The notes: generated by a model not told the origin, from the sequence alone. A stretch of DNA of 64,000 nt from a virus (IMGVR_UViG_3300046028_007828:12533-76532), one strand, 5' to 3'. Positions 60,626 to 64,000 are shown, counted from the first letter of the stretch. Program-made: numbers and translations.

Positions 60626-60876
60626 AAACTTATAAAGGTTTTATCTTTGGACCAAATAAAATACCCAAGAAAGGCGATGCTTTGCTTTGGGTAATAGGAG
60701 ACAGAGTGATCAATGGCGAGTGGCATCTGAAGGTTTCAGCCGACAATCTCACCGCCGTTGTTCCATATACAGGCCAAACTGTTTATAACCTGCGTGCTGC
60801 TCCTTATGAGATGGGCCATGATTATAATGATGTGCTGAAAAGGGTCGAAGCGACTCTTGGCAATCAAACATACTAA
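60622..60876 (+). CDS. Hypothetical protein
   Basis: 84-aa ORF, ATGA overlap with the ligase. Confidence 0.6.
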   Translation: MKTYKGFIFGPNKIPKKGDALLWVIGDRVINGEWHLKVSADNLTAVVPYTGQTVYNLRAAPYEMGHDYNDVLKRVEATLGNQTY

Positions 60877-61046
60877 CAAATATCTCTTCATGATATTATG
60901 AGCACTGAATTGCATGTAAAGTTGTTATAATAAGTGATTTATGTAAAAAAATGCAAAAAAGATGATATTTTTCGAAAAAAGTGTTTGACAATTCATTTTT
61001 TTCCATACATAGTTCTATTTATTAAATAACAGTAATAACAAATTCA

Positions 61047-61178
61047 ATGAGACATTATTCAATCAAATCGCAATCCGTGACCTCCAAGTGGAGTGTGCGC
61101 TTTAATGCGACACAACCTACACTCGGAGCCAATGAAGGCGACTTGTTGGGTGGTCCGGTTGAGGAAAAGATTTTCTAA
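61047..61178 (+). CDS. Putative leader peptide (43 aa, MRHYSIKSQSVTSKWSVRFNATQPTLGANEGDLLGGPVEEKIF); not in ORF track
   Basis: ATG after an A-rich leader, downstream of TTGACA (60985) and TATTTAT (61016); followed by a terminator whose 5' arm is complementary to the ORF 3' part. Confidence 0.6.
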   Translation: MRHYSIKSQSVTSKWSVRFNATQPTLGANEGDLLGGPVEEKIF

Positions 61179-61204
61179 ATAAAAATCAAATCCAAAACCT
61201 CCGG

Positions 61205-61235
61205 AACCACCCTCTAAAAAAGAAGGTGGTTTTTT
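61205..61235 (+). terminator. Intrinsic terminator / attenuator hairpin
   Basis: AACCACC-C-TCT-AAAAA-AGA-A-GGTGGTT + T-run. Confidence 0.75.
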
Positions 61236-61264
61236 AATTTTAGGGAAAGTAAGTAAGAAAAAGT

Positions 61265-61383
61265 TTGACAGAAGATAAAAAAGAGTCAAGGTGACAGAAG
61301 ATAAGAAAAAGAAAGGGTAGCGAAAGAGAAAGTTAAAAAAAGTTCGAAAAGATAGTTGACAGCGAAAGATAAAAGAGTAAGAT
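61265..61383 (+). promoter_or_regulatory. Tandem promoters upstream of tRNA array
   Basis: TTGACA-16-CAAGGT (61265) and TTGACA-16-TAAGAT (61356..61383) in A-rich context; the two spacers are related (GATAAAA..GAG). Confidence 0.6.
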
Positions 61384-61698
61384 GGTCAGCGTTGTAGTAG
61401 CAAAGGCGAAACAACAAAAAGTTTTTTCACAGTACAATTTTGACAGGTAAAAGCGCACCTAGAAAGCGTGCTAAAATAGCCACCGGCCCATTTAGGGACC
61501 GTTTTGTGGGAATCAATATCAATAAGTTCAGGTAGGGTTGAGGTTAGAGTGAGTAACTTTATTGTGAGGCCGAAGTATAAGTTATTTTTAATAAAGTTGG
61601 AGAGATCAACAATAAGATACGCAAGTAGCGTATTGAGTTGGCCTCTCCTAACAATTTCAAGTCGTTCTACTGACCGACTCTAAATAAATCAGTTATAT

Positions 61699-61777
61699 GG
61701 AAGTCAAGCTATTCGGGACGGGCACCTCCCTCTTAAGGAGAACATTCGTGTGGGTTCAACTCCCACGGCTTCCACCA
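61699..61777 (+). tRNA. tRNA-Lys(CTT)
   Basis: GGAAGTC/GGCTTCC acceptor, loop CT-CTT-AA, GTTCAAC T-loop, CCA. Confidence 0.85.
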
Positions 61778-61838
61778 TTTTTTCAAAATAATTGATGTTA
61801 TGTGAGTATATATTATATTTATTTTTACACATCAAATT

Positions 61839-62171
61839 ATGAACGACCATAAAGATTTACTTGGAGAATTTCTGTCCGGTGGATGGATTGTAGCAATAAT
61901 CGGAGCAGCGGGTATGATAGCAAGATTGCTGACCGACGATGTAAAGATTACACTGATGCAACAAGTTAAAAGAATACTTGCCGCATCAATATGTTCTGTC
62001 ATTACATGGTTTTTATTAGAAAATGTAGATTTAAGTAGTCTGACTAAAGCCGTAACATACGGAGTAGTTGGAGTAATCAGTCCAGAAATTTTAGAAGGTT
62101 TGTCGAAGTTGGGAAAGAGTTTTGCAAAAAATCCTTTCAAATTCTTCAGGCGGACAAAAAAGATTGAGTAA
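61839..62171 (+). CDS. Multi-TM membrane protein (holin-like) within the tRNA array
   Basis: Three hydrophobic segments, basic C-terminus; TATTTAT at 61816. Confidence 0.6.
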   Translation: MNDHKDLLGEFLSGGWIVAIIGAAGMIARLLTDDVKITLMQQVKRILAASICSVITWFLLENVDLSSLTKAVTYGVVGVISPEILEGLSKLGKSFAKNPFKFFRRTKKIE

Positions 62172-62175
62172 TAGT

Positions 62176-62252
62176 GCGGGGTTGATGTTTAACGGTTAGC
62201 ATACGAGTTTTCCAAACTTGATGTGGGGGTTCGAATCCCCCACCCCGCTCCA
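62176..62252 (+). tRNA. tRNA-Gly(TCC)
   Basis: GCGGGGT/ACCCCGC, loop TT-TCC-AA, T73, CCA. Confidence 0.92.
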
Positions 62253-62255
62253 ATT

Positions 62256-62318
62256 TGTACTAGGTTTGGTGTTCCAACCATTCCGAAGATATATAGCAAA
62301 CACTAAATACGCAGTACA
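62256..62318 (+). ncRNA. Structured spacer RNA A
   Basis: TGTACT/AGTACA closing stem, 10-bp inner stem GTTTGGTGTT/AACACTAAAT, CGAAG in loop. Confidence 0.45.
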
Positions 62319-62329
62319 GCAAATTTTTT

Positions 62330-62415
62330 GGCTTATTATACCGCTAAGGACGCGGTTCGCACTGTAAATGCGAAGCCCTCGGGCTGGGTTGGTTCGATAC
62401 CGACATAAGCCACCA
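62330..62415 (+). tRNA. tRNA-Tyr(GTA)
   Basis: GGCTTAT/ATAAGCC, loop CT-GTA-AA, long variable arm, CCA. Confidence 0.92.
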
Positions 62416-62422
62416 TTTTTAT

Positions 62423-62498
62423 CCGCTTATAGCTCAATTGGCAGAGCACGCTCTTTATAGGGGCATGGTTGTGGGTTCAACTCCTACTGGGCGGACCA
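62423..62498 (+). tRNA. tRNA-Ile(TAT)
   Basis: CCGCTTA/TGGGCGG, GCTC/GAGC D-stem, loop TT-TAT-AG, A73, CCA. Confidence 0.8.
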
Positions 62499-62509
62499 AT
62501 TTATAATAC

Positions 62510-62597
62510 GGAAAGTTGGCAGAGTGGTCTAATGCAGGACTTTGCTAAAGTCCCGATCCGAAAGGGTCCATAGGTTCGAATCCTATATTTTCCGCCA
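62510..62597 (+). tRNA. tRNA-Ser(GCT)
   Basis: GGAAAGT/ATTTTCC, loop TT-GCT-AA, long variable arm, G73, CCA. Confidence 0.93.
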
Positions 62598-62600
62598 AAT

Positions 62601-62760
62601 TTAGATTCTTGCAAGACGGTGTTCCTTTGAATTGCAATTCAATCGAAGTGACCGCAGCTGAAGTCAGTGGTGAATGATATAATGGCATTATTTCTCCCAT
62701 AAAGGAGAATATCTGGGTTCGACTCCCAGTTTACCGAAAAGCTGACATGAGGCAAAACTT
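62601..62760 (+). ncRNA. Composite RNA containing a tRNA-like domain (62668..62737) with 6-nt anticodon loop and no CCA
   Basis: TGGTGAA/TTTACCG acceptor, TTCTCC-CATAAA-GGAGAA, CTGGG-TTCGACT-CCCAG; enclosed by GTCAG/CTGAC. Confidence 0.55.
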
Positions 62761-62763
62761 TAC

Positions 62764-62838
62764 GCCGAATAAACATAAATGGTAATGTGCTAGTCTTGTA
62801 AACTAGATAAGCGGGTTCGATTCCCGCATTTGGCTCCA
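62764..62838 (+). tRNA. tRNA-Thr(TGT)
   Basis: GCCGAAT/ATTTGGC, loop CT-TGT-AA, CCA. Confidence 0.92.
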
Positions 62839-62840
62839 AT

Positions 62841-62915
62841 TTGTAGGTCGCAATATTCTGAATTATAATTCAGCGAAGATATTCCAATTATTGCGTTAGT
62901 GGAATTCGCCTATAA
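62841..62915 (+). ncRNA. Structured spacer RNA B (possible pseudoknot)
   Basis: TTGTAGG/CCTATAA closing stem; CGCAATA/TATTGCG crossing ATTCCA/TGGAAT; palindrome CTGAATTATAATTCAG; CGAAG. Confidence 0.5.
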
Positions 62916-62923
62916 CAATTTAT

Positions 62924-62999
62924 GCCGTGTGACATAGCTGGTTGTGATGACTCCTCTGCAAAAGGATGGAGATTGGTTCGATTCCAATACGCGGCTCCA
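62924..62999 (+). tRNA. tRNA-Cys(GCA)
   Basis: GCCGTGT/ACGCGGC, loop CT-GCA-AA, T73, CCA; irregular D arm. Confidence 0.8.
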
Positions 63000-63007
63000 A
63001 TTTATAT

Positions 63008-63081
63008 GCGGGATTAGTTTAGTGGTAGAATGTGACATTGCCAATGTCGATACGGGAGTTCGATTCTCCCATCCCGCACCA
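63008..63081 (+). tRNA. tRNA-Gly(GCC)
   Basis: GCGGGAT/ATCCCGC, loop TT-GCC-AA, A73, CCA. Confidence 0.92.
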
Positions 63082-63083
63082 CT

Positions 63084-63209
63084 TTGACAGGATGGAATGG
63101 GCGTCGTATAGTTGGTAAATCAACTTGCAGTCCAACGTGAACCAACCCAGCAGCAACGAAGCGTGAGAAAAGTTGAGTTCTCATGTGAAGCTAGTAGAAG
63201 TTCTGTCAA
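63084..63209 (+). ncRNA. Structured spacer RNA F
   Basis: 10-bp closing stem TTGACAGGAT/GTTCTGTCAA; internal hairpins GTTGG-TAAA-TCAAC and GTGAGAA/TTCTCAT. Confidence 0.5.
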
Positions 63210-63218
63210 TAATTTTAT

Positions 63219-63296
63219 GGCCATGTGACGTAACTGGATAAACGTGTTAGTTTTAGAAACTAAATTCTGTGGGTTCGAGTCCCACCTTGGCTACCA
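63219..63296 (+). tRNA. tRNA-Leu(TAG), short variable loop
   Basis: GGCCATG/CTTGGCT, loop TT-TAG-AA, 5-nt variable region, A73, CCA. Confidence 0.8.
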
Positions 63297-63300
63297 TTTT

Positions 63301-63377
63301 AGGTCGAAACAATGAGTTGCATAAATTCAATGAAACGGTTGGTTAATAACCAACAGCCACTTTTCTTGGCGCGACTT
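63301..63377 (+). ncRNA. Structured spacer RNA D
   Basis: AGGTCG/CGACTT closing stem; three hairpins (TGAGTT/AATTCA, GTTGGTT/AACCAAC, GCCA/TGGC). Confidence 0.45.
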
Positions 63378-63385
63378 TTAATTTT

Positions 63386-63501
63386 GATAGTGTATGTGTT
63401 TTCGTCTCTAAAATCTTACGGCACATGGAAGACGTGTAACGGGTTCAAAGTCCGACCACTTTGCATTGAGCAGAGTGAGTAAGCCAACCATATACATTAT
63501 C
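63386..63501 (+). ncRNA. Structured spacer RNA E
   Basis: 13-bp closing stem GATAGTGTATGTG/CATATACATTATC; T-loop-like GGGTTCAAAGTCC; CACTTTGC/GCAGAGTG hairpin. Confidence 0.55.
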
Positions 63502-63512
63502 AAAAAATTTAT

Positions 63513-63588
63513 GGGAGTTTGGTGAAGGCGGTCCTCACGTCGCACTGAAGATGCGAAGAAGTTGGTTCAATTCCAACAGCTCCCACCA
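63513..63588 (+). tRNA. tRNA-Phe(GAA)
   Basis: GGGAGTT/AGCTCCC, loop CT-GAA-GA, CCA. Confidence 0.9.
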
Positions 63589-63594
63589 TTTTAT

Positions 63595-63668
63595 TGAGAT
63601 ATGTTGTAGTGGTAGCAACGGAGTCTTTGAAACTCTTAGTCTTGGTTCGATTCCAAGTATCTCAGCCA
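63595..63668 (+). tRNA. tRNA-Gln(TTG), copy 1
   Basis: TGAGATA/TATCTCA (U1-A72), loop CT-TTG-AA, G73, CCA. Confidence 0.93.
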
Positions 63669-63811
63669 GTTTGAGAAACCTATACCAATAGGTGTATAAG
63701 CCGAACGGCCCGAGAGGGATGGACGTGAGCTATAGCATGGATGTGTAATCGAAAGAGTATCCACCAAGACTTGTTCTTGGCGCAAAAATCCATTGTGACA
63801 ACACCTCAAAC
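63669..63811 (+). ncRNA. Structured spacer RNA G
   Basis: GTTTGAG/CTCAAAC closing stem; hairpins ACCTAT/ATAGGT, CCC-GAGA-GGG, TGGAT/ATCCA, CCAAGA/TCTTGG. Confidence 0.5.
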
Positions 63812-63817
63812 ATTTAT

Positions 63818-63893
63818 CGGAGTGTGGTGACAAAGGTTGTCGATTCGTTTTGGAAACGAAATTATGCAGGTTCGAGTCCTGTCACTCCGACCA
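63818..63893 (+). tRNA. tRNA-Pro(TGG)
   Basis: CGGAGTG/CACTCCG, loop TT-TGG-AA, A73, CCA; weak D-stem. Confidence 0.88.
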
Positions 63894-63900
63894 CTTTTAT

Positions 63901-63974
63901 TGAGATATGTTGTAGTGGTAGCAACGGAGTCTTTGAAACTCTTAGTCTTGGTTCGATTCCAAGTATCTCAGCCA
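63901..63974 (+). tRNA. tRNA-Gln(TTG), copy 2 (identical to copy 1)
   Basis: Exact repeat of 63595..63668. Confidence 0.93.
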
Positions 63975-64000
63975 TTTTTATTGCGATATAGTGTTAAGTC

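Follow-up and report, generated by a model that had tools for sequence, protein, structure and literature searches.

A mixed set of folded RNA elements between the tRNA genes of a viral tRNA array

What occupies the long gaps between the genes of a viral tRNA array? We asked this of a 64,000-nucleotide (nt) stretch of virus DNA (IMGVR_UViG_3300046028_007828:12533-76532; hereafter the window), which is the final 64 kilobases (kb) of a 76.5-kb virus sequence and stops within a tRNA array. ARAGORN called 14 tRNAs here, all on the + strand, between positions 61699 and 63974, and the gaps between them are bimodal: linkers of 6-11 nt and spacers of 77-216 nt that contain discrete elements. In annotations of phage tRNA arrays, the stretches between the tRNAs are usually treated as meaningless spacers; in this clade of lake-water giant phages, other folded RNAs make up a large share of the array. 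An earlier reading made from the sequence alone (the sequence-only reading) had listed eight intervals between the tRNAs as a family of structured non-tRNA RNAs, and all eight exist as discrete elements with the boundaries that it proposed. We found that these are discrete, folded cassettes and that the helices of four classes are maintained by compensatory changes. At a probability of roughly 0.6, we take the source to be an uncultured freshwater T4-like giant phage and the long spacers to hold assorted RNA cassettes, independent of one another and transcribed from the + strand within a polycistronic tRNA operon.

The cassette layout is visible in the linkers. Every one of the array's 13 standard tRNAs encodes its CCA; a direct tRNA-tRNA junction has the form CCA-NUUUAU-tRNA and a long spacer the form CCA-NUUU(G/A)-element-(A)UUUAU-tRNA. 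Because these linkers match the direct junctions, every element resembles one extra cassette with its own linker, and the A/T-rich linkers like those around the tRNAs that had been noted before are thus confirmed. A complete 297-kb relative (G001) has short junctions of 5-11 nt, and its remaining gaps run from 57 nt to several kb. A terminal helix, which had been claimed for most of the elements, closes seven of the eight listed intervals (H4, S2, S4, S5, S6a, S6b and S7); S3 lacks one and turned out to be two modules.

We then compared the folding of the elements with that of 12 tRNAs and 120 coding segments, using z-scores computed against dinucleotide shuffles (Table 1). Taken together, the elements fold like the array tRNAs and better than the coding controls. 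Individually, just three of them exceed the 5% tail of the coding controls.

Table 1. Elements of the tRNA array in the window, with their predicted structures and folding z-scores (range or limit in brackets)
Element	Position	Strand	Structure	Folding z
Head RNA, module A	61446..61584	+	H1, H2, H3 and invariant single strands	
Head RNA, module B (H4)	61596..61652	+	long bulged hairpin GGAGAG...CUCUCC	-5.7 (to -6.7)
S2	62256..62318	+	three-way junction, closing helix GUAC(U)/(A)GUAC, two hairpins	-1.4
S3 (S3a and S3b)				-0.8
S3a	62601..62660	+	hairpin UUGAAU-UGCA-AUUCAA, then UCGAAGUGA	about 0
S3b	62668..62737	+	non-canonical tRNA(-like) gene within S3	
S4	62841..62915	+	three-way junction, closing helix UAGG(U)CG/CGCCUA	-1.55 (about -1.5)
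S5	63084..63209	+	closing helix UUGACAGGAU/GUUCUGUCAA, two internal hairpins	-1.65 (to -1.7)
S6a	63301..63377	+	cloverleaf-shaped four-way junction, closing helix AGGUCG/CGACUU, three hairpins	-3.4 (-2.8 to -3.4)
S6b	63386..63501	+	closing helix of 14-17 base pairs, CGUCU/AGACG stem, T-loop hairpin, variable hairpin	-3.2 (-3.2 to -5.0)
S7	63669..63811	+	closing helix GUUUGAG/CUCAAAC, about six short hairpins	-2.1 (-2.1 to -2.5)
Twelve tRNAs, mean				-1.8
120 coding controls, mean				-0.35 (standard deviation 1.05)

Are the helices conserved among relatives? Homologues of five of the window's classes turn up in related contigs from IMG/VR and metagenomes, and a check of covariation, as the sequence-only reading had suggested, revealed compensatory changes in four of them: the head RNA (23 of 42 pairs), S6b (9 of 34), S6a (4 of 22) and S2 (4 of 17). 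These four elements are real beyond chance and are concrete candidate RNA families, for which alignments and models exist.

The stretch at 61446-61584 is the best-supported structured RNA of all. The sequence-only reading had started its list at 61596-61652, which is a real hairpin (H4), but had overlooked the adjoining module A. Together the two modules make up a head RNA of ~210 nt (61446-61652) upstream of tRNA-Lys that is kept in every relative and is present in a single copy both in the window's record (G000) and in G001. From 22 distinct sequences RNAalifold derived four helices spanning both modules: H1 (GGU/ACC), H2 (CCAC-CGG...CCG-GUGG) and H3, which varies in length, in module A, and H4, most of whose pairs covary across relatives. 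There is no U-tract after H4 and therefore it is not a terminator. The head RNA has >60 invariant positions, with GGUAAAA, UAAAAUAG, GGGAAUCAAUAUCA and UGUGAGGCCGAAGU as the invariant single strands of module A, and no tRNA features. A search with its two-part pattern retrieved 36 IMG/VR contigs and 19 from metagenomes but no bacterial genome, and the head RNA has no Rfam match. A possible pseudoknot of three base pairs (bp) joins CGC with GCG, which are replaced by UGC/GCA in 6 of 28 variants. In the most divergent variant (L086:3105-3252, - strand; and L093) an extra hairpin, CAUG-ACAG-CAUG, lies between the pseudoknot strands, and the CGC and GCG flanking it are retained.

Two other identities were considered for the head RNA. 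Between tRNA-Lys and tRNA-Gly the array contains an open reading frame (ORF) of 110 amino acids, ORF110 (61839-62171), which has hydrophobic stretches and no Pfam match; it is kept in all relatives, and ~52% identical versions occur in phages without nearby tRNAs. As the head RNA is missing beside these distant ORF110 homologues of phages that have no tRNA array, we rejected the idea that it is the 5' untranslated region of ORF110. The second identity came from RNase P: GGUAAAAGCGCACC of the head RNA (61446-61459) and GGUAAGAGCGCACC of E. coli rnpB (L078, - strand) agree in 13 of 14 positions, and a second motif of similar sequence, GCUAAAAUAGCCACC, lies downstream in the head RNA. A relative of the RNase P specificity domain was rejected because 5 of 500 shuffles gave an equal score, the structural context is different, the rnpB partner strand is missing and there is no Rfam match. 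The likeness is probably due to chance.

S6b is present in 14 IMG/VR contigs as 12 distinct variants. Most relatives share it at 98-100% identity, three lineages (L001, L043/L047 and L073) at about 80%. For comparison, tRNA-Phe and tRNA-Thr are 99-100% identical, whereas ORF110 and the RNA ligase gene upstream of the array reach only 66-80%. In the structure test 97% of the cells were paired, none of 500 shuffles did as well and shifted controls collapsed. Moreover, a deletion of two base pairs in the closing helix is matched on both of its strands, and the model scores 171 bits on the + strand versus 20 bits on the - strand. The CGUCU/AGACG stem carries a conserved loop of 22 nt, and a conserved single strand of 12 nt reads AGUAAGCCAACC. 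The T-loop-like arm that had been noticed in one element is the S6b arm CGGG-UUCAAAG-UCCG; its loop reads UUCAAAG, UUCGAAG or UUCGAAA across the variants (consensus UUCRAAR), and S6b has no anticodon arm. A pseudoknot between CUUAC and GUAAG was rejected as it showed no compensation among the variants. In both S6b and the head RNA, long unpaired stretches remain unchanged, which points to sequence-specific contacts, and the near-total conservation of S6b and of the head RNA's single strands implies specific partners.

The middle hairpin of S6a has 5 bp and a 7-nt loop, UUAAUAA; there is no T-loop or D-loop signature, no CCA and no match to the tRNA model. Its compensatory pairs come from four distinct variants (the window, L006, L001 and L047), and it is missing from many relatives and from a co-occurring haplotype. 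S2, in which a conserved CCGAAGAU separates the two hairpins, has homologues of 73-75% identity after tRNA-Gly(UCC) in at least six relatives (L001, L009, L019, L054, L071 and L072). Its 3' end reads ...GUACA-CCA in four relatives, GCA in the window and GCA or UCA elsewhere. In both elements the compensatory changes indicate selection on structure.

Do the elements belong to one family, as had been proposed? They do not: they fall into mutually unrelated classes. The covariance model of S2 found its own class only, with no match to S4 or S3a, and that of S6b likewise recovered S6b alone. When 118 spacers from related loci were compared with one another, they sorted into at least 15 sequence classes; non-tRNA cassettes are therefore a feature of the whole clade. 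The CGAA(G) motif beside hairpins, which had been noticed in several elements, is present as CGAAG in five elements (the head RNA, S2, S3, S4 and S5; 0.87 expected, p = 0.002 uncorrected), but the enrichment is not significant after allowing for 1024 pentamers. CGAAG also occurs at the junction of the anticodon stem and the variable loop of tRNA-Tyr and tRNA-Phe, and in S2, S3 and S4 it follows a hairpin as it does in these two tRNAs. This placement hints at a tRNA ancestry, which a sequence comparison with 239 array tRNAs did not confirm: the similarity of S2, S4 and S6a to them was no higher than that of random tRNA pairs.

The non-tRNA nature of the elements also needs one correction, because S3 holds a tRNA above the threshold of the Rfam tRNA model; the other elements reached no Rfam threshold. 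The acceptor stem of S3b is 7 bp long, its D-loop contains GG, its T-arm is canonical and its anticodon loop, CAUAAA, has 6 nt. Unlike the array's 13 standard tRNAs it encodes no CCA (3' end ...ACCG-A-AAAG), and an extra helix, GUCAG (62663-62667) with CUGAC (62743-62747), encloses it and buries its ends. ARAGORN labelled it 'tRNA-???' with a two-base anticodon. On RF00005 it scored 38.9 bits (expectation value E = 1.7e-07, model positions 1-71; gathering score 29), a match that appeared with relaxed filters and was missed by the default ones. The closest of the 239 array tRNAs is a tRNA-Trp at a marginal 71%. S3b is a non-canonical or disabled tRNA. The relaxed and mitochondrial modes of ARAGORN were uninformative, giving many inconsistent calls on both strands.

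S4, S5 and S7 are plausible but unsupported as structured RNAs. Within S4 a hairpin CUGAAU-UAUA-AUUCAG is followed by CGAAGAUA and a hairpin UUCCA...UGGAA, and a single relative (L009/L053) has a 97.6% identical copy, likewise located between the tRNAs for Thr and Cys. The hairpins of S7 include GCC-GAAC-GGC and CCC-GAGA-GGG, and S7 had no Rfam match above noise. The first 29 nt of S5 (63084-63112), which form the 5' strand of its closing helix, hold a near-consensus sigma-70-type promoter, TTGACA-17-TATAGT, that matches at 11 of 12 positions and is the best match in 3.4 kb. Going by its sequence, this promoter could start transcription inside the array, ahead of tRNA-Leu.

We next asked whether the elements resemble known RNAs. 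Rfam was searched with the whole window at gathering thresholds, then at E <= 10 with the array region and with the spacers one by one. Only tRNAs and noise were returned and no element but S3b reached the threshold of any family, in keeping with the earlier statement that no known family could be assigned. Two of the elements, the head RNA and S6b, are as conserved as tRNAs and absent from Rfam. With respect to the tRNA model itself, S3b passes the gathering score, S6a has a cloverleaf outline and S6b a T-loop, but S6a, S6b, S2 and S4 have no score on it. The nearest parallel is in T4, where RNAC and RNAD are made from the tRNA region and have roles that are still unknown (PMC3014915, PMC9697503). 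Like these species 1 and 2 RNAs, the cassettes are non-tRNA RNAs in the tRNA region of a T4-type phage, although processing is inferred here; T4 has two such RNAs, whereas the window has at least eight cassettes of different classes. A blastn search (word size 11) of positions 60850-64000 against 50,697 phage records, made for sequence homology to RNAC and RNAD, returned tRNAs only. GOLLD is another candidate for comparison and was reportedly first noticed in lake metagenomes. GOLLD and ROOL are structured RNAs that often lie beside tRNAs in phages and prophages and are perhaps co-transcribed with them (PMC5737381). They differ from the elements of the window in being single RNAs of ~580-800 nt, while those described here are numerous and measure 57-210 nt, and neither Rfam model matched anything here, whether at its gathering threshold or with the cutoff relaxed to E <= 10. 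The elements are new RNA classes with a precedent in the known RNAs of phage tRNA regions, and they bear on an old question, the job of the non-tRNA RNAs in T4-type tRNA clusters.

How would such cassettes be made? By analogy with T4 RNAC and RNAD, we favour the view that they are co-transcribed, co-processed and partly tRNA-derived small RNAs. Co-transcription is supported by the layout: the genes and elements lie on one strand in a run that has no + strand terminator-like sites and is downstream of promoter-like sites at 60985 and 61356. As the cassettes share the NUUUAU linker with the tRNAs, the cuts that free the tRNAs would also release the cassettes. An RNase P cut at the 5' end of the next tRNA would free the 3' side of a cassette, and an RNase E-type cut or exonuclease trimming behind the preceding CCA its 5' side; the terminal helix could then shield the freed cassette from 3' exonucleases. 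Most cassettes would probably have originated from tRNA genes, and the strongly conserved ones may now serve as non-decoding RNAs with tRNA-handling or other proteins as their partners. As a single-copy element at the 5' end of the operon, the head RNA could instead be a cis-acting leader.

RNA libraries contain parts of the array. One freshwater metatranscriptome contig spans S6b and tRNA-Phe, a second one includes part of the head RNA, and a marine metatranscriptome contig spans tRNA-Ser and S3a; the two RNA runs contain only about 5% of the sequence words. In S3a the marine contig carries A62631G and T62638C, which turn an A-U pair of the hairpin into G-C (one compensatory pair). Contigs of four runs also show that the array varies among co-occurring haplotypes: tRNA-Ser is joined directly to tRNA-Thr without S3, and tRNA-Leu directly to S6b without S6a. 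In a related haplotype tRNA-Gly(GCC) and S5 are skipped together. Since the haplotypes differ by complete cassettes, whole cassettes are gained and lost.

Several observations weigh against the view of independent, co-transcribed cassettes. Module A of the head RNA has a folding z of +0.4 and is undetectable by thermodynamics alone. For S3, S5 and S7 the evidence consists of modest folding scores, with no homologue in ~95 related loci (blastn) or in IMG/VR (four exact-core scans), and S5 may be merely a promoter. The covariation of S6b, S6a and S2 is drawn from just three or four independent lineages. In one relative, on an IMG/VR contig (L069:1616-1754, - strand), a truncated S6b consisting of its first 46 nt is directly joined to a tRNA, which is either a natural product of deletion or recombination or an assembly chimera. 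In addition, the RNA-library contigs end where the DNA contigs end and DNA carry-over is possible, and therefore they prove neither transcription nor RNA ends. There is also a rival explanation. tRNA arrays turn over fast, and dead copies persist as clusters of tRNA-sized hairpins. The long spacers might then be decaying tRNA genes and neutral filler, with a residual constraint not to disturb the folding or processing of neighbouring tRNAs. S3b does look like a damaged tRNA, S6a is a cloverleaf without tRNA signatures, S2 still ends in CCA in some relatives and, like S4 and S6a, is of tRNA size. Cassettes come and go between haplotypes, S3, S5 and S7 are unique to the phage of the window, and ORFs of the homing-endonuclease type in the arrays of relatives speak for a high turnover. 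We nevertheless consider decay a doubtful explanation of the array, since S6b stays nearly identical, its 22-nt loop and 12-nt single strand included, the head RNA combines its invariant positions with an absence of tRNA features, S2 and S6a have compensatory changes and, S3b aside, no element rises above background similarity to the array tRNAs. It is also conceivable that some elements are signals acting in cis, S5 as an internal promoter with a leader for the tRNAs downstream of it and the head RNA as a riboswitch-like sensor or stabiliser in the 5' leader of the operon. The promoter that opens S5 fits this, as does the head RNA, which is single-copy, is always the first element past the promoters, is missing in relatives with ORF110 but no tRNAs, and has invariant A-rich single strands that resemble ligand or tertiary-contact sites. 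However, no expression platform is visible and no U-tract follows H4, the S5 promoter has no conserved counterpart, promoter-like sites are in total not in excess (10 versus 8.1 expected from shuffles), and S2, S4, S6a, S6b and S7 would be left unexplained; we regard this possibility as unlikely.

Could the elements be Y-RNA-like, that is YrlA-type RNAs in which a GNCGAA strand binds Ro60/Rsr and a tRNA-like module is displayed? The sequence-only reading had proposed Ro-binding RNAs, and S6b does resemble YrlA in that a T-arm-bearing module is enclosed by paired 5' and 3' ends, a long end-to-end helix being followed inside by a T-loop hairpin and then a further hairpin. Yet YrlA has the layout V-T-AS-D, and the order and identity of the arms of S6b differ from it: no D-arm follows the T-loop hairpin and the acceptor-like hairpin after it, and a GG-loop stem precedes the T-arm instead. 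S6b also has no GNCGAA near its 5' end. The motif GNCGAAN0-1G is fitted in full by S6a of L006 and L047, which reads GUCGAAAG, but S6a of the window reads GUCGAAAC (start AGGUCGAA) and fails at the final G. The YrlA model RF02553 (gathering score 69 bits) had a sole match of 18.8 bits at 62361-62478, across tRNA-Tyr and tRNA-Ile, and gave nothing on any spacer, even with relaxed filters on S6a or S6b. YrlA genes share their strand with Ro60 and are no more than 4 kb away from it (PMC4201824). A search for a Ro60/TROVE gene (PF05731) at E <= 1 found none in G000, which is 32% complete, and none in G001, the 297-kb relative that is 100% complete; the controls matched. The Y-RNA proposal is thus largely refuted and we consider it very improbable. 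A more speculative view, which we also hold to be improbable, is that the array combines purpose-built tRNA mimics with a sensor of the tRNA operon. S6b, a T-loop elbow that lacks the anticodon arm, and S3b, a tRNA unable to be charged or to decode normally, would serve as decoys or sponges for tRNA-directed defence nucleases of the host or for tRNA-handling enzymes, alongside the RNA-repair genes of the phage. The head RNA would be a new ligand- or tRNA-sensing leader that controls how strongly the whole array is expressed. The tRNA-like features and the nearby RNA-repair genes make a role against host defences that target tRNAs a testable idea.

Finally, we looked at the surroundings of the array. 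The public runs that contain DNA of the window are lake-water metagenomes. An RNA ligase gene (PF09414 with a PHA02142 OB domain) ends ~1 kb before the array, and with its protein as a query we found 23 IMG/VR loci of 74-82% identity, most of them with arrays in the same gene order; one of these loci sits on the complete 297-kb contig. Among cultured relatives the closest ligase match is only 42% identical, and hence there is no near annotated model phage. The arrays of the relatives contain further items. A class of 117 nt is found in relatives only (L001:10568-10684; also L002, L015, L016 and L020) and has a tRNA-like acceptor stem, a D-arm with AGUGGUAGA, a canonical T-arm and an anticodon-stem loop of ~31 nt in place of 7. 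A 'spacer' at L015:19810-19894 is apparently a tRNA-Asp(GUC), which ARAGORN called in L009 but missed in L015, and some long gaps in relatives are therefore missed tRNAs. The longer gaps of these arrays hold ORFs (L004:13553-14194, L002:10407-10847, L004:8940-9548 and L020:11179-11790), some with motifs of the homing-endonuclease type (NUMOD3; a weak HNH_3 match) and two with an AMOP domain. In the window itself, two identical copies of tRNA-Gln(UUG) lie at 63595-63668 and 63901-63974, and the record stops 26 nt past the second copy. The array goes on beyond the end of the contig, probably with further cassettes, and the tRNA-Gln(UUG) repeat may have broken the assembly.

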